Source: Candidatus Omnitrophota bacterium (GTDB taxonomy: Bacteria > Omnitrophota > Gorgyraeia > VGKH01). Taken from it: DNA of 64,000 nt. Under the pieces are notes generated by a model. The model ran no database searches, was not told the origin of the DNA, and saw only the letters and a list, made by a program, of their open reading frames with translations. This document shows, piece by piece, positions 1,796 through 41,068 of this stretch (within the stretch, counting starts at the first letter, position 1; the number at the start of each line of letters is the position of its first letter). Location: positions 35,890 to 99,889 of the forward strand of contig JBDRFF010000020.1 in the NCBI GenBank assembly GCA_043819095.1. The letters run 5' to 3'. The translations under genes were made by a program, and so were the position numbers.

Positions 1796-1992
1796 TTATT
1801 GCTTTCTTTAATGAGCGCTTGACTTATGGAACAAAAGTGACATAAGTCAAATGCGCGAATTAACCCCCACTGTTTCGTTTTGGTTCGCTTTGCTTCACCA
1901 AAAGCGAAACAAAACGGTGGGGGCAAATTCAGCCAGACGACTTAGCTTCCTCCGACGATACGTCGGAATCGTTAAGTCGTGGCTTCATTTCC
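1796..1992. repeat. Modular nested-palindrome intergenic repeat element, copy A (H1 variant 2; H2 = cccccactgtttcg...cgaaacaaaacggtggggg; H3 degenerate)
   Basis: Shares left end ttaatgagcgc, H1 hairpin gcgcttgacttatgg/cataagtcaaatgcgc, linker gaattaacccc, linker ggggcaaattcagcca, H3 cgacttagcttcctccgacg-ata-cgtcggaatcgttaagtcg and right end gtggcttcattt with copies B-E. The cooF stop (1929) lies inside it. Confidence 0.7.
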
Positions 1993-2426
1993 TCTTCTTC
2001 TACCCAAAGAACTGCTTTAACCGGGCAAGCCTTTACACACTGCGGCTCGCCGATATCAGTACACAAATCACATCTAACAGGAATTTTTACTTTTTTATTC
2101 GGCCTGATAGCACCATAAGGACAAACCATTACGCACATCCAGCAACCTACGCATTTATCTTCATCGTATAAAATCTGACCGGTTTTCTCATCTTTTGATA
2201 TTGCCGCAGCCATACAAGCAGCTACACATTTGGGATCCTTACAATGCCTGCAGCTCATAGGATAATTTTTATCTTTAGAAAAGGTAATCTTTATGCGTGG
2301 TAAAGATTTATCCTTCTCCTTGATCATCTTTTCCAATTCTTTGGAGACCGAATGCGAAATAGCACAGGCAAGTTCACAGGATTTACAACCTAAACATTTC
2401 TCGACGTCAAAATAAATCTTTTTCAT
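1929..2426 (-). CDS. cooF: CooF-type 4Fe-4S ferredoxin (CO dehydrogenase iron-sulfur electron-transfer subunit)
   Basis: Multiple CxxCxxCxxxCP cluster motifs (CLGCKSCELAC, CVGCWMCVMVCPYGA, CDLC...CVKACP). Lies immediately downstream of cooS. Confidence 0.8.
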   Translation of the reverse strand: MKKIYFDVEKCLGCKSCELACAISHSVSKELEKMIKEKDKSLPRIKITFSKDKNYPMSCRHCKDPKCVAACMAAAISKDEKTGQILYDEDKCVGCWMCVMVCPYGAIRPNKKVKIPVRCDLCTDIGEPQCVKACPVKAVLWVEEEEMKPRLNDSDVSSEEAKSSG

Positions 2427-2445: not shown

Positions 2446-2541
2446 AACGCAGATTATCGCAAATCTAACGCAGATACACACAGATTTTATCCTTATGGAC
2501 AATCTGCGACCATCTGCGTGCAATCCGCGAATATCTGCGTT
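2446..2541. promoter_or_regulatory. ~95-bp imperfect palindrome made of eight 8-mer (AACGCAGAT / ATCTGCGT-like) repeats at ~11-bp spacing, between cooS stop and cooF start
   Basis: Left arm: aacgcagat (2446), tcgcaaatc (2457), aacgcagat (2467), cacagattt (2479). Right arm in inverse orientation: aatctgcga (2501), catctgcgt (2511), aatccgcga (2522), atctgcgtt (2533). Symmetry centre near 2493. Confidence 0.5.
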
Positions 2542-2557
2542 CAAAAACTATTCCCAT

Positions 2558-4489
2558 TTATTTTTTTCCTGTTTTAACTGCCTCCTGATACATCATTGGC
2601 TGCAGTTTAAGCGCCTCACGCTTTTTATTTATATGATCAATCATCATTTTTGCTGCTTTTAAAGGATCTGCCTCAAATGCAAATTTTCCTCCGCAAATAG
2701 ACTCCATATCCTCAGTCAAAAATTTAGTTACATTTTGACTCCCTAAGACAGGCATTGCCCCGCCTAAAACTGTAAACACGCCTGAAGAAACAAAATAAAA
2801 TCCGATGCTTATTGCCTTTTCCGACATCCACTCTGGCGCTGCTCCGGCTGCGGGAAGATCTGAAATATCTTCACCAAGACCCCCTTCTTTCAAAACTTCA
2901 GTTGCTGCGATTAGAATTCGACTATTATCTACGCAAGAGCCCATATGTAATACAGGCGGAATACCTACTGCTTCGCAAATTTCTTTCAAACCTTTGCCTG
3001 CTGCTTCAAATGCTGCTTCTGGCTGTAACAATCCAGCCTTACCGCAAGCGATAGCAGAGCATCCTGTCGATAAAACAATCACATCATTTTTAAGTAATTC
3101 TTTGACCAAAGTCAGATGGCCAAAATCGTGAGTAATTTTAGGATTATTGCAACCCACAACTCCTGCGATACCACGAATCCTTCCGTTAATGATAGCTTCA
3201 TTTAAAGGCTTAAAGGTGTTAAGATATTTCCCACCTAAAATGCGCGAAACTATTTCAGTTGAAATCCCTGCAATTAAATCTTTCTTTTCTTTGGGAATAA
3301 AAACTCTGTTTTTATCTCTTTTCTTATAATTCTCGATTGCCTTTTTCACAATCGATTTCATTATATTTATGGCGTCGTGTTCATCAAAGTGGATAAATGT
3401 CACGCCGGGAAACTTTGCCTTTTCCGACGTGGTAATAATCTCAGTATGAAAACATTTGGCAACATCAATCAAACCCGGCATAATACACTGGATATCGACC
3501 ATCATCATTTCTACCGCGCCTGTGGCGATGGCTAATTCCTGTTGCAGGAAATTTCCTGCTAAAGGCACTTCATGACGCATCAGGACTTCATTTGCCGTAC
3601 AGCACATTCCGGCTAAATTTATTCCAGCTGCGCCTGCTTCTTTTGCCAATTTTATCATCTCCGGGTCTTTGACCACCTGGGCTGCTGCCTCAGGAAGAAG
3701 CGCTTCGTGGCCGTGAACAATAATATTAACCTGATCCTCTTTCAATACACCCAGATTAACCGTCCCTCGTATTGGTTCGGGAGTACGCAAAAGGATATCC
3801 TGGGCTTCGGTTGCAATCATCGAACCGCCCCAGCCATCCCCAAGACTTGTCCTCATTCCGTGCAAAATTATACTCTTATATTCATTATCCACTCCAATAT
3901 GAACCCTATGCATGGCTTCAACAATTTCTCTATCAACACCGCGAGGAATAATGCCTGCCTTTTTCCAAACCGCGATTCTCTTCTTAGGAGCGCGGACGAT
4001 AAATTTAAGCGGGCCTTCCTGCGCGCCAAAATCCTCTAAAAACTTATCGCCTAAATCCGCAGCAATATCTTCTTTGGAACGACCTTCAATTTTGATACCA
4101 TACATCTTGGCCATTTCCTTTAATTTATCTTCGTCTTGAATTTTATAATCGTGGATTTTGCCTTTGCCAACTAAATGAAGCGCGTGCGCAACGCCTCTTC
4201 CGTGGTCTGAATGCGCAGCAGCTCCACAGGCAATATGGCGAAGCAAATTTCGCGCGACAATTGTGTCTGCATCGGCGCCACAAACTCCACACTGTGTGCC
4301 TTCGCCAAATGGATCAATCCTACAAGGCCCAAGATAACAATTCGTACAACAAATCCCTAACTGCCCAAAACCGCACTGCGGTTGCATTTCTTCATGTCTG
4401 TCCCAAATTGTCTTAAAAGATTCGCCTTGAATCTTTTTTAAAACTTCTTGGGTTGCTGGATCAACCGATCGCTTAGTTACATCACTCAT
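2558..4489 (-). CDS. cooS: Anaerobic Ni-dependent carbon monoxide dehydrogenase catalytic subunit (CooS/AcsA)
   Basis: 643 aa. N-terminal CGFGQLGICCTNCYLGPCRI cluster B/D motif and overall CooS-like length. Strong SD (AGGAGG) 8 nt upstream on the minus strand. Confidence 0.9.
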   Translation of the reverse strand: MSDVTKRSVDPATQEVLKKIQGESFKTIWDRHEEMQPQCGFGQLGICCTNCYLGPCRIDPFGEGTQCGVCGADADTIVARNLLRHIACGAAAHSDHGRGVAHALHLVGKGKIHDYKIQDEDKLKEMAKMYGIKIEGRSKEDIAADLGDKFLEDFGAQEGPLKFIVRAPKKRIAVWKKAGIIPRGVDREIVEAMHRVHIGVDNEYKSIILHGMRTSLGDGWGGSMIATEAQDILLRTPEPIRGTVNLGVLKEDQVNIIVHGHEALLPEAAAQVVKDPEMIKLAKEAGAAGINLAGMCCTANEVLMRHEVPLAGNFLQQELAIATGAVEMMMVDIQCIMPGLIDVAKCFHTEIITTSEKAKFPGVTFIHFDEHDAINIMKSIVKKAIENYKKRDKNRVFIPKEKKDLIAGISTEIVSRILGGKYLNTFKPLNEAIINGRIRGIAGVVGCNNPKITHDFGHLTLVKELLKNDVIVLSTGCSAIACGKAGLLQPEAAFEAAGKGLKEICEAVGIPPVLHMGSCVDNSRILIAATEVLKEGGLGEDISDLPAAGAAPEWMSEKAISIGFYFVSSGVFTVLGGAMPVLGSQNVTKFLTEDMESICGGKFAFEADPLKAAKMMIDHINKKREALKLQPMMYQEAVKTGKK

Positions 4490-4668
4490 TAATTATTCCT
4501 CCTTCAATGACGTCATAATTTACGGAGTCCTAAGACGACGTAAATTATACGTCTGAAATGAACCCCACTTCTTGCTTTCGCAAGAAAGCAGCGGGGTAAA
4601 TTCAGCCAAACAACTTATGTTCCTCCGACGGTACGTCGGAGGAACATAAGTTGTGGCTTCATTTAAAG
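4490..4668. repeat. Modular nested-palindrome intergenic repeat element, copy B (most compact; perfect H3 palindrome)
   Basis: ccttcaatgacg left end; H1 gacgtcataatttacg/cgtaaattatacgtc; H2 ccccac..cttgctttcgcaagaaagcag..cgggg; H3 acaacttatgttcctccgacg-gta-cgtcggaggaacataagttgt (21-bp perfect arms); right end gtggcttcattt. Fills the entire metF-cooS gap. Its left end supplies the AGGAGG SD of cooS. Confidence 0.75.
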
Positions 4669-5538
4669 CCCTACAGCGTCTAAAATTAAAGGAACTTGTT
4701 TGTCCCAGCCCAACGGCATAAGGTGTATTCCCTGACACATGGAATTTAATTCCTTAATCAGACGCGCAGCTATCTCAACGCTCTTTTTTGGTCTATCTTC
4801 TTTGGAAACACTTTTCATTTCTTCTATCAAATTATCCGGGACATTTACTCCCGCGACATTTTCATTCATGAATTTTGCCATACCGGCAGATTTTAAAAGC
4901 ACGATTCCGGCCATAATCGGAACTTTAATATGTTTTACTTTATTAATAAAAGTTTCGAACTGTTTTATATCATAAACCGCCTGCGTCTGGAAAAATTCAG
5001 CCCCTGCGGCTACTTTTTGTTCCATTTTCATAATCTGCGGTTCAATAGGATCTGCGCCGGGATTTACCACCGCGCCTTTACAGAATTTCGGCGCCGGGCC
5101 TTGAAGATCATTACCAACCATATCCTTACCTGATTCCAATGTTTTAATAACTTCCAACAGCTGAACGCTTTCTAAATCAAACACAGGCTTTGCGTCGGGA
5201 TGATCTCCTAATGAGACATGATCACCGGTTAAAGCTAAAACATTATCAATTCCTAATGCCGCAGCTGATAATAAATCCGATTGGAGTGCTAAACGATTTC
5301 TATCCCGGCAGGTCATCTGAAATATCGGCTCGAGTCCTTTTTCCTTTAATAGACGACATACTGCCAACGAACCAAGACGCATTACAGAACTCTGCAGATC
5401 AGTTACGTTAATTGCATCAACACGGTCACGAATTAACTCGGCATCTCCTAATAATTCTTTAGTTTCGATACCTTTGGGCGGACCGATTTCAGAAGTTAAT
5501 AAAAATTTTCCTTGTTTTATTTTCTCTTTAAAAGTCAT
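4663..5538 (-). CDS. metF: Methylenetetrahydrofolate reductase (small MetF type)
   Basis: 291 aa. MTHFR fold signatures (LTGDHVSLGDHPDAKPVFDLESVQLL; AGAEFFQTQAVYD). Adjacent to folD. No MetV-like partner seen. Confidence 0.8.
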   Translation of the reverse strand: MTFKEKIKQGKFLLTSEIGPPKGIETKELLGDAELIRDRVDAINVTDLQSSVMRLGSLAVCRLLKEKGLEPIFQMTCRDRNRLALQSDLLSAAALGIDNVLALTGDHVSLGDHPDAKPVFDLESVQLLEVIKTLESGKDMVGNDLQGPAPKFCKGAVVNPGADPIEPQIMKMEQKVAAGAEFFQTQAVYDIKQFETFINKVKHIKVPIMAGIVLLKSAGMAKFMNENVAGVNVPDNLIEEMKSVSKEDRPKKSVEIAARLIKELNSMCQGIHLMPLGWDKQVPLILDAVGL

Positions 5539-6383
5539 TTGGCTTGAATCTTTGTTGCTTCAACTAAATTACGCATTAACATTGTGACGGTTAATGGCCC
5601 TACGCCGCCTGGAACCGGCGTGATATATGATGCACGTTTGGAAGCTTCGTCAAATTCTACGTCTCCCACGATTTTTCCTTCAACGCGATTTATTCCTACA
5701 TCGATTACAATTGCGCCATCCATTATCCATTCGCCCTTAATTAATCCGGCTTTTCCTACGGCTACAACTAAAATCTCGGCTTTGTTTACATGTTCGATTA
5801 ATTTTCCAGCTTCTGAAGTTCCAATATGACAGACTGTTGTGGTTGCAAATTTCTCTAATAATAAAAGGCTTAAAGGTTTCCCTACGATTTCGCTATGCCC
5901 TACGATAACTACTTCTTTTCCGTAAAGATTAACTCCAGTCGCCTCAATCAAAGCCATTGCTGCCGCTGCAGTACAAGGCGCAATTCTTGCTTTACCCATT
6001 AAAACTTTTCCCAGATTTTGCGGATGCATTCCTTCGATATCTTTATCGGGTGAAATAAAACTACTGATTGCCTTATAATCTATCTGCTTTGGAAGCGGCA
6101 TCTGAACGATGATTCCGTTGACATTAACATCATTATTTAATTTCTGAATAAAATCAATTAAGCCTGGCTGATTCGTATCAGCCGGCAATCTTTCTAAACT
6201 ATATTCAATTCCTAAATTGTCTGCTGTCTTTTTCTGTGATTTGCAATAGGCTTCTGCGCCGACATTTTCACCGATGATGATGCTTGCTAAAACCGGCTTT
6301 TTGCCCAAGCTTGAAATTTCTTTCTTTAATGCCTCTTTGATTCCAGAAGCAATAATTTTTCCTTCAAGTAATTTGGCGGCCAT
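5535..6383 (-). CDS. folD: Bifunctional 5,10-methylene-THF dehydrogenase / 5,10-methenyl-THF cyclohydrolase
   Basis: 282 aa; MAAKLLEGKIIASGIKEALK N-terminus; NAD(P) site VVIVGHSEIVGKPL; PVPGGVGPLT C-terminal motif. Confidence 0.9.
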   Translation of the reverse strand: MAAKLLEGKIIASGIKEALKKEISSLGKKPVLASIIIGENVGAEAYCKSQKKTADNLGIEYSLERLPADTNQPGLIDFIQKLNNDVNVNGIIVQMPLPKQIDYKAISSFISPDKDIEGMHPQNLGKVLMGKARIAPCTAAAAMALIEATGVNLYGKEVVIVGHSEIVGKPLSLLLLEKFATTTVCHIGTSEAGKLIEHVNKAEILVVAVGKAGLIKGEWIMDGAIVIDVGINRVEGKIVGDVEFDEASKRASYITPVPGGVGPLTVTMLMRNLVEATKIQAK

Positions 6384-8921: not shown

Positions 8922-9208
8922 TTGACCTCCTTCAATGACGACATAATTTACGGAGTTTTCAAACGACGTAAATTATTCGTCGAAATTGAACCCCCCACCA
9001 CTTTTAGTAATCAGGCGTTCTTTTATATAAAAACGTTTATCGTCTTTTCAAACCCACCATCTTTAATTCCACAGTTGTTTCTAAAAGTGGTGGGGGGTCA
9101 AATTTCCCTCGACGTTGCTCGGGACTCCTTCGAGGGATCCTGAGCGAAGTCGAAGGGCAGACAAACAATTTATGTCATTGCATTCCATAACTTGTGTCTT
9201 CATTTGAT
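8916..9208. repeat. Modular nested-palindrome intergenic repeat element, copy C (long H2 variant plus extra hairpin module, degenerate 3' end)
   Basis: Left end cctccttcaatgacg (supplies fhs SD). H1 gacgacataatttacgg/cgtaaattattcgtc. H2 17-bp perfect stem ccccccaccacttttag (8991-9007) / ctaaaagtggtgggggg (9081-9097). Extra hairpin ccctcgacg...cgtcgaggg (9106-9136). Ends ...gtgtcttcatttg next to the yraN stop. Confidence 0.7.
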
Positions 9209-14849: not shown

Positions 14850-15047
14850 ATCTCTCGATTTCTAATGAGCGCACAATTTACGTCGCTATTGCTCCGTAAA
14901 TTGTTTGCGCGAATTAGACCCCACACCTTTTATCTATTCAAACTATCTTAAAAACTCCCACCAAAAAATATGAATACTAAAAAAGTGTGGGGTCAAATTC
15001 AACCATACGACTTATGTTCACTTCGTTCCATAAGTCGTGGCTTCATT
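14850..15047. repeat. Modular nested-palindrome intergenic repeat element, copy D (hybrid H1; H2 = ccccacac...gtgtgggg)
   Basis: ctaatgagcgc left end; H1 gcgcacaatttacg/cgtaaattgtttgcgc; gaattagacccc linker; ggggtcaaattcaacca linker; H3 cgacttatg..cataagtcg; right end gtggcttcatttgag. The queH stop (15018) lies inside. Confidence 0.7.
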
Positions 15048-40804: not shown

Positions 40805-41068
40805 ATTAATCCTTTAATGAGCGCTTGGCTTATGGAATCCGCCAAAGTTCTGTGGCGGATGACATAAGTCAACTGCGCGAATTGAACCCCCCACCACTTT
40901 TAGCAAGGGCCTTCATTTTATGTAGGACGTTTATCCTTCTTTTCAAACCCACCAAATTTAATTCCACCGTTATTTCTAAAAGTGGTGGGGGGTAAGTTCG
41001 AACATATAACTTATGTTCCTCCGACGCCTCGTCGGAGTCCATAAGTTATGTCCTCACTTACATTCTGA
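40805..41068. repeat. Modular nested-palindrome intergenic repeat element, copy E (H1 variant 2 with nested ccgcca/tggcgg hairpin; long H2 variant as in copy C)
   Basis: ttaatgagcgc left end; H1 gcgcttggcttatgg...cataagtcaactgcgc; H2 stem ccccccaccacttttag (40887-40903) / ctaaaagtggtgggggg (40976-40992) with internal cttttcaaacccacca..tttaattccac shared with copy C; H3 ataacttatgttcctccgacg-cct-cgtcggagtccataagttat. The lptB stop lies at its right end and the tig start at its left end. Confidence 0.7.

Follow-up and report, generated by a model that had tools for sequence, protein, structure and literature searches.

A heptad-array hairpin inserted between cooS and cooF in a Candidatus Omnitrophota bacterium belongs to a dispersed, polar element family

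Two inverted arrays of heptads fill the cooS-cooF gap

We analysed a stretch of 64,000 nucleotides (hereafter the window) of contig JBDRFF010000020.1 from a Candidatus Omnitrophota bacterium, in which a long palindrome lies between two genes of the Wood-Ljungdahl operon, cooS and a cooF-like gene. The minus strand of the window carries fhs, fchA, folD, metF, cooS, the cooF-like 4Fe-4S gene and a gene for a FAD/NAD oxidoreductase. The cooS gene (2558-4489, minus strand; TIGR01702, 693.6 bits) encodes the catalytic subunit of the anaerobic CO dehydrogenase, and its product is 100% identical to a protein from a Candidatus Omnitrophota metagenome-assembled genome (MAG) at NCBI. The 4Fe-4S ferredoxin gene downstream (1929-2426, minus strand; 4Fe-4S family matches) has orthologues in related genomes that are found directly 3' of cooS. 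The gap between these two genes measures 131 bp here (2427-2557) and contains the whole palindrome.

An initial annotation of this DNA had described eight heptads in the gap, four per arm at roughly helical spacing, and we confirmed them all. On the plus strand, the first arm holds CGCAGAT (2448-2454), CGCAAAT (2458-2464), CGCAGAT (2469-2475) and CACAGAT (2479-2485), while the second arm holds ATCTGCG (2502-2508), ATCTGCG (2512-2518), ATCCGCG (2523-2529) and ATCTGCG (2533-2539), with start-to-start distances of 10, 11 and 10 nt in both arms. The imperfect inverted repeat of ~95 bp described by the same annotation is real but was drawn too short, since its arms reach over 2437-2550 (arms 2437-2486 and 2501-2550, 50 nt each, 74% complementary). 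Read on the minus strand, the 5' arm (2502-2541) is AACGCAGAT-AUU-CGCGGAT-UGCA-CGCAGAT-GGU-CGCAGAT, the 16-nt centre or loop (2486-2501) is UGUCCAUAAGGAUAAA, and the 3' arm (2446-2485) is ATCTGTG-UGU-ATCTGCG-UUAG-ATTTGCG-AUA-ATCTGCGUU. On its outer sides, the extended palindrome has a U-run stretch (GGGAAUAGUUUUUGA, 2542-2556) that begins right after the cooS stop codon and an A-run stretch (AAAAAAUUACCAAAA, 2431-2445) that ends ~5 nt before the cooF AUG, and the predicted fold pairs the A-run stretch with the U-run on the opposite side.

This arrangement is not explained by chance. The window contains the exact heptad ATCTGCG 17 times, where 6.5 would be expected, and none of 100 shuffled sequences reaches this count of 17 (0/100). 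Five of these 17 sites fall in the 92-bp stretch of the element and the others are isolated and located within coding sequence, so that the over-representation is due to the cluster in the element alone. Allowing one mismatch, no second cluster of at least four heptads within 110 nt exists anywhere in the 64 kb. The minus-strand RNA of the palindrome folds into four helices of 7-9 bp with small internal loops between them, at an energy of -60.2 kcal/mol (z = -11.6).

The element was inserted into a formerly tight junction

We compared the cooS-cooF junction with that of five related Omnitrophota lineages, the CooS proteins of which are 93-85% identical to that of the window. The gap measures 24 nt (L001), ~22 nt (L005), 1 nt (L410), 15 nt (L411) and 1 nt (L412/L413) in these relatives, against 131 nt here, and the element is not present at the orthologous junction in any of the five lineages (5/5). 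Since the gap of the relatives is limited to 1-24 nt, the window element corresponds to an insertion of ~110 nt, and this comparison of junctions shows that, in this Omnitrophota lineage, it entered a place where cooS and cooF had been tightly joined. One of the relatives, L410, has a full member of the same family between folD and metF (84.6 bits, E 1e-16, with the covariance model described below), unlike the window, where folD and metF overlap. The presence of the same element at different junctions of one operon is the mark of a mobile or at least polymorphic repeat, rather than of a locus-specific control site.

Two side observations concern these junctions. In L410 (1909-2170), the first 66 nt of metF are found twice around the folD-metF copy, the two versions being ~75% identical to each other: the truncated one ends with a stop before the element and the other opens the intact gene after it, with the truncated one being closer to the metF of the window than the intact L410 start. 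In the window, CooS ends with ...MMYQEAVKTGKK (643 aa) where the closest relatives end with ...MMYQGK (637 aa; window 2558-2600); this C-terminal extension adjoins the inserted element, and the two may have a common origin.

The element is a full member of a large polar subfamily

Four Omnitrophota copies were found to be near unit-for-unit identical to the window element, and a 28-nt signature taken from them (ATCTGYG-N3-ATCTGYG-TTRG-ATTTGCG) was scanned against metagenome contigs. This gave at least 120 matches, with 109 unique copies among the matches listed, and a polar consensus: TTTT-[T/G]AACGCAGAT-nnn-CGCAGAT-TGCA-CGCRGAT-GGT-CGCAGAT-loop-ATCTGCG-nnn-ATCTGCG-TTRG-ATTTGCG-nnn-ATCTGCGTT-AAAA. 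The 5' arm of the window element agrees with the family consensus AACGCAGAT-nnn-CGCAGAT-TGCA-CGCRGAT-GGT-CGCAGAT and its 3' arm carries the subfamily signature; the polar, non-complementary spacers (TGCA against TTRG, and ATTTGCG against CGCRGAT) are present on the minus strand as GAUUGCACGCAGAU and GCGUUAGAUUUGCGA. Its minus-strand flanks, UUUUUG and UUAAAAAA, are as in the subfamily, the T-run 5' and the A-run 3' of the element being family features.

We then built a covariance model (R1) from 64 other copies, leaving the window copy out. This model matched the complete element at 2440-2547 of the minus strand with 101.6 bits (E 1.6e-20, model positions 1-102), so that the polar orientation of the copy is that of the cooS/cooF sense strand; the plus strand of the same copy scored 78.8 bits and the next best match within the window 14.9 bits. 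All 65 canonical copies (65/65) share the 10/11/10 spacing, with loops of 0-16 nt. One contig of 12.9 kb carries at least six copies and several others carry 2-4. Among the 109 copies listed, 33 lie in ++ gene context, 35 in --, nine between convergent genes and one between divergent genes, and most are located ~0-60 nt from a stop codon, in both orientations. Copies are thus extragenic, near 3' ends and rare between divergent genes, which is the distribution of REP/REPIN repeats, and all-against-all clustering of 909 open reading frames (ORFs) from 124 loci showed that the genes beside them are mutually unrelated. Model and scan together show that the window element is a full member of a large polar subfamily located at many unrelated intergenic sites. 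The initial annotation had taken non-recurrence of the motif as evidence that would count against its proposals: the motif recurs massively, though the genes downstream of its copies share no common function.

This family has apparently not been described so far. At the gathering threshold, Rfam gave nothing in the window and no family overlapping the arrays in 18 related loci, and at E values up to 10 it gave just chance-level miRNA matches in the window. The element had no blastn match in plasmids (PLSDB), cultured phages or 5,426 Escherichia coli genomes, and 17-mer strings of the repeats were absent from the papers searched.

Some copies depart from the simple layout. The polar arms of L182, L198, L327, L331 and L385 are in the opposite orientation to those of L306, L307, L335 and L388, and yet all of these copies share one flanking context (tagccaatttaagaactacc ... 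ttgggttgaaattatcattttactagtta); since the loop ttaaagattt follows the orientation of the flanks while the arms flip, a single inversion is an insufficient explanation. Mosaic variants are found among L314, L358, L359, L388, L301, L317, L360, L395, L319, L325, L330 and L386, some with small extra hairpins (e.g. cctgtctgccgacaggcagg) in the TGCA spacer of the 5' arm, split into TGC and A, and others with an alternative 5' module, ggaggcgggatcccgc...gtgcgggacacgcggat.

Sequence is conserved rather than base pairing

The 5'-arm heptads were unconstrained by the search pattern, and three of the four match the consensus in 88-94% of the 65 copies; U3 does so in 32/65 copies, and the spacers are variable. 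In the alignment of copies, the core helices are 95-99% paired yet invariant, while the spacers are just 27-58% paired. Shuffled alignments reach a covariation score of 0.060, higher than the 0.040 of the real one, meaning that there is no compensatory covariation, and the G·T of unit 2 is kept as such, with no compensating change. It is therefore the sequence of the heptads and their phasing that are preserved, and not base pairing, as this alignment shows for the family.

These results bear on the possibility that the hairpin is a host-selected RNA element, in which case it would have been co-opted for processing or stabilising the RNA between the cistrons and would set the ratio of cooS to cooF-FNOR-acsB. 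The sense-strand fold is very stable, as given above, and all four differences between the arms read as G·U in the sense strand and as A·C in its complement (-53.8 against -40.2 for the arms only); RNase III acts on similar stems in rRNA intervening sequences, and hairpins of this kind flank the tmRNA gene in one Patescibacteria contig. The G·U pattern is however inherited from the family consensus rather than being a local adaptation, copies are oriented at random with respect to transcription (33 sense, 35 antisense), compensatory changes are missing, and the relatives function with a junction of 1-24 nt. We thus consider such a host-selected role unlikely. The four G·U differences had first looked supportive of selection on the sense-strand RNA but were rejected as evidence for it: the better-folding strand is the sense strand in 15 and the antisense strand in 20 of 65 hairpins of the wider family, unit-3 variants of the subfamily are wobble-preserving in 12 cases and wobble-breaking in 17, and no covariation is seen. 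The minus-strand stem-loop of ~45 bp proposed by the initial annotation is physically right, with its -60.2 kcal/mol, but it would be a side effect of an inserted repeat and not an evolved feature of the Wood-Ljungdahl operon.

A strong hairpin located right after a stop codon, in a family common at gene 3' ends and found between convergent genes, could also be an intrinsic terminator or attenuator acting between cooS and cooF. Since the stem lacks a U tract at its 3' side on both strands (the T-run lies before the element and the A-run after it in either reading), the element does not qualify as a terminator; moreover, a terminator scan lists nothing at 2437-2550 and the element sits within an operon that is tightly coupled in relatives, so that this role is highly improbable.

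The conservation of heptads over pairing and the 10/11/10 spacing, near the helical repeat, correspond to an architecture for cooperative protein binding, as expected if the eight heptads were a multi-site operator, bound on one face of the helix by a CO- or redox-responsive factor regulating the Wood-Ljungdahl operon. This was one of the proposals of the initial annotation, and it did not survive the comparison with other genomes. The element is missing from the cooS-cooF junctions of the five related lineages, one of which has it at folD-metF instead, and it is dispersed in more than 100 copies beside unrelated genes (pilins, kinases, ABC ATPases, glycosyltransferases), in both orientations and mostly after stop codons; just one of the ~78 copies for which both neighbours were assigned lies between divergent genes, and no regulator gene is associated. 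Being neither conserved at the orthologous position nor restricted to a regulon, a Wood-Ljungdahl operator was rejected, and we give this reading next to no credence.

Arrays of the same core are found in many phyla

Viral contigs were scanned with a three-heptad pattern and a genome collection with a tolerant four-heptad pattern. The same core at a 10-nt period was found in 50 stretches of viral contigs, often several per contig and as inverted pairs, and in at least 119 stretches of genomes that span many phyla, namely Omnitrophota, Planctomycetota, Verrucomicrobiota, Acidobacteriota, Cyanobacteria, Bacteroidota, Proteobacteria, Chloroflexota, Patescibacteria and archaea (ANME/Methanoperedens). 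The arrangement 5'-CRCAGAT...ATCTGYG-3' outnumbers the reverse one by 42 to 4.

Several of these loci have features of their own. In a Patescibacteria MAG (L174, 4576-5176), a tmRNA gene (4667-5070) lies between two complete CACAGAT-type hairpins, located 12 nt upstream and 5 nt downstream of it. In Nodularia and Sphaerospermopsis (L173 ~3600-3680 and L185 ~4260-4340), a single four-unit AAACGCAGAT array is found in a non-coding stretch with flanks conserved across these two Nostocales genera, which may be a different use of the same repeat. In L025 (3140-3260), a CACAGAG/CTCTGTG array hairpin is nested around a single CGCAGAT array. Gene calling also often absorbs arrays, which then appear as false extensions at the N- or C-terminus of proteins (ICVHLC, ICVHLR, SAFICG, MNADERR, LIRVHPW), as for a photolyase called 55 aa too long through an array (L214, 104-1699).

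Arrays bracket genes for GxxExxY proteins

Where two arrays lie a few hundred bases apart, the sole recurrent content between them is a gene encoding a GxxExxY protein of ~120 aa (TIGR04256; PF13366, PDDEXK_3). Such a gene lies between 5' CRCAGAT and 3' ATCTGYG arrays in the subfamily of the window itself (L330/L378, L355 and L363), and also in L243 (Methanosarcinales) and L284 (Verrucomicrobiota), with the arrangement being reversed in L215 (Verrucomicrobiota). In these gene-bearing relatives, the gene occupies the loop position of the element, and contig L330 has a gene-bearing and a gene-less copy with the same arms and outer flanks. These loci show that GxxExxY genes lie between arrays of this kind in several phyla, with members of this subfamily among them.

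Since these first loci had been selected for their arrays, we also examined 11 loci picked via the protein alone (five plasmid matches, one viral match and five look-ups of representatives): inverted arrays surround the gene in six of them, three have partial or other palindromic repeats and two have none. The core varies by lineage (CGCAGAT, CGCGAAT, CACAGAG, CGGGAT, GGATGA), with variants following GxxExxY lineages and not host phyla. In a back-translation test on 150 diverse GxxExxY representatives with 122 N-terminal extensions, array-compatible N-terminal peptides (MNADERR-like) were found in 23/122 against 0.2 in shuffles, a count that is inflated because the profile contained an array-encoded N-terminus; array-encoded peptides are always of the 5' type at the N-terminus and of the 3' type at the C-terminus. 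ANME-2/Methanoperedens have more than 100 close GxxExxY paralogue clusters, the called N-termini of which (MEPQINADERRLN) are translated array. Paralogues of this group (P0121-P0240) are 77-96% identical, indicating a recent proliferation, and some called GxxExxY proteins hold two array-encoded segments (P0124, P0125, P0133).

The dependence of the core on the protein lineage also bears on whether the arrays bind a general host chromosome protein (nucleoid-associated, or topoisomerase/gyrase-like) and are kept for chromosome organisation, as has reportedly been proposed for the BIMEs of E. coli. Conserved, helically phased heptads and intergenic copies dispersed over many phyla would suit such a role. 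The distribution is nevertheless patchy, with no match in the E. coli genomes, PLSDB plasmids and cultured phages searched, the presence of the element is polymorphic at orthologous sites, and core variants track GxxExxY lineages rather than host phyla, which makes this role very unlikely.

The GxxExxY family (23,416 clusters) is listed as one whose function is unknown and which has been transferred horizontally multiple times (PMC3424549). Its catalytic E...D...(D/E)xK residues are conserved, and an AlphaFold model (pLDDT 96) resembles Cas4 and lambda-exonuclease-type nucleases, with weak matches to a Holliday-junction resolvase and a homing endonuclease; these matches of a predicted structure would mean just a minimal Cas4/lambda-exonuclease-like PD-(D/E)XK core. 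Relatives of the protein were found at one locus in viral contigs and in six plasmid records. Searches of GxxExxY against PADLOC, PHROGs and PDB sequences gave nothing significant, a literature search on GxxExxY/PF13366 found no paper on repeats, and a motif scan of the collected loci found no S23p-like gene beside arrays.

A probable gene-less copy of a mobile-type element

In our view, this palindrome is probably one gene-less copy of an inverted-repeat element that is dispersed and multi-copy, with arms of four tandem 7-nt cores each (CGCAGAT/ATCTGCG). Its best reading is as a gene-less member of a REPIN/MITE-like family (MITE, miniature inverted-repeat transposable element): at ~108 nt, with inverted arms of 40-50 nt and a 16-nt loop, it has the terminal inverted repeats, the small size and the non-coding nature of a MITE. 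It may be a non-autonomous derivative of a GxxExxY cassette, with putative mobilisation by the GxxExxY protein. The heptads, phased at about one turn of B-DNA, would then be candidate recognition sites of the cassette nuclease or of another mobilising protein, and probably not of a Wood-Ljungdahl regulator. Once transcribed, the hairpin would most likely uncouple the translation of cooF from that of cooS and could, by analogy, be cut by RNase III or act as a barrier to 3' exonucleases, effects which would be incidental consequences of the insertion. It is plausible that the RNA stem-loop is a by-product, for example an RNase III target like the Coxiella rRNA intervening sequence.

Several observations weigh against this interpretation. 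The 64-kb window holds one copy only, so that a multi-copy status in this genome is deduced from relatives, and no GxxExxY gene. In the clustering of 909 ORFs from 124 loci, no transposase-like family recurs beside copies. No clear target-site duplication emerges when the empty sites of relatives are set beside the insertion, since the T-run and A-run at its sides belong to the palindrome and extend it. Two of the 11 protein-chosen GxxExxY loci are without any arrays, and in a less biased subset of the back-translation test, array peptides were found in 2-5/67 against 0.1-0.9 expected. As for the RNA consequences, neither covariation nor a preference for the sense strand is seen among copies.

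More tentatively, heptad-array hairpins and GxxExxY proteins may form an unrecognised, cross-phylum class of mobile or homing elements, in which the nuclease would recognise the phased cores or their cruciform/hairpin, gene-bearing cassettes would spread into or leave gene-less hairpins, and heptad-flanked rRNA intervening sequences would be related; this broader idea is possible rather than probable.

Comparison with known repeat systems

In its general logic, the system resembles REPIN-RAYT (PMC3116915), but it fails the defining features of the latter. As in REP/REPIN and RAYT, short non-coding palindromes are found in many copies, intergenic near 3' ends and in either orientation (PMC3116915, PMC3733652); they are rare between divergent genes, a small nuclease-type gene is itself bracketed by repeats, and the repeat sequence varies with the protein lineage. 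Unlike a REP, which is a single imperfect palindrome of 20-40 nt, the arms here are made of tandem 7-nt cores with a 10-11-nt period. The element ends with AACGCAGAT...ATCTGCGTT rather than with the GTAG/CGTC tag that defines REPs (PMC3733652), and the strings ATCTGCG and CGCAGAT are not found in that REP survey (PMC3733652). The gene between arrays encodes a GxxExxY/PDDEXK_3 protein instead of the Y1 (HUH) transposase of REPINs, and GxxExxY genes can reach high copy numbers, unlike RAYTs, which are usually found as single copies.

The 23S intervening sequence (IVS) found in Coxiella burnetii is described as a selfish stem-loop with a small ORF in its loop and a 28-bp stem formed by terminal inverted repeats (PMC4990558). 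Three to four tandem GACAGAT heptamers, of variable copy number, lie just before the start of its ORF, and RNase III cuts at the first repeat (PMC4990558). It shares with the present family an inverted-repeat stem, an optional small ORF in the loop and heptads with ACAGAT in common with CACAGAT, the variant of CGCAGAT found here. The IVS differs in lying within 23S rRNA helices, in its contiguous heptamers (7-nt period) and in its four-helix-bundle S23p cargo, while the window element lies in an mRNA spacer, has a 10-11-nt period and no ORF, and has relatives that carry GxxExxY. Rfam found no rRNA in the window, and the element lies between protein-coding genes, outside the location that characterises an IVS.

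Correia elements of Neisseria and ERIC/IRU elements of enterobacteria are intergenic, inverted-repeat insertions of ~100-150 bp in operons, which form long RNA hairpins; RNase III or RNase E can process these hairpins and so change how stable the flanking segments are. Their terminal inverted repeats are well defined, they duplicate a TA target, and they are relatives of insertion sequences with a DDE transposase. Here, on the contrary, no DDE partner and no clear duplication was found, and the arms are internally repetitive. Pho boxes, bound by winged-helix response regulators, are 7-bp repeats at an 11-bp period, located in the promoters of one regulon and conserved at orthologous promoters. 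The window element is like them in repeating a 7-bp core and a 3-4-bp spacer in helical phase, but it is polymorphic, dispersed, mostly downstream of genes and made of an inverted pair of arrays.

Since the cooS-cooF spacer is a recent repeat insertion, it is unfit for inferring CO or redox control of Wood-Ljungdahl genes, although the coupling of cooS to cooF may still be changed by the insertion in this lineage. The family is abundant in Omnitrophota, with same-core arrays in many other phyla and in viral contigs, and gene calls gain spurious terminal extensions from these repeats. If true, the link between heptads and GxxExxY would assign a function to a family of more than 23,000 clusters annotated as unknown, and it suggests a second partnership of the REPIN-RAYT kind on a different enzyme fold; the bracketing of GxxExxY genes makes the role of this nuclease family directly testable.

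Other repeats in the window and its relatives

The window also carries repeats of other families. A second palindromic family, with ends like GAATTGAACCCCCCACCACTTTTAG...CTAAAAGTGGTGGGGGGTCAAATT, is found at 8982-9106, 14897-15014, 40886-40993 and ~1866-1925, the last in the gap between cooF and FNOR; a related CCCCGCACC...GGTGCGGGG hairpin lies at ~5685-5750 in L001. This cooF-FNOR gap (1794-1928) measures 135 nt here, against a 4-nt overlap in L410 and L412. Since inserted palindromes also fill this spacer, nearly every junction of the operon has acquired a repeat.

A third repeat is a perfect 21-bp hairpin (ACAACTTATGTTCCTCCGACG...CGTCGGAGGAACATAAGTTGT) located at 4610-4654, between metF and a small ORF, and flagged as terminator-like by a simple scan; it is found again 36 kb away at 41009-41040, with related hairpins at 1830-1860 and 40825-40872. 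In L001, the closest relative, array hairpins with other cores (AAATCCCAAA/TTTGGGATTT and CAAAAGT/ACTTTTG) are found at other junctions of the operon (3095-3215 and 5866-5990), so that inverted arrays of ~10-nt units are a broader class than the CGCAGAT type.

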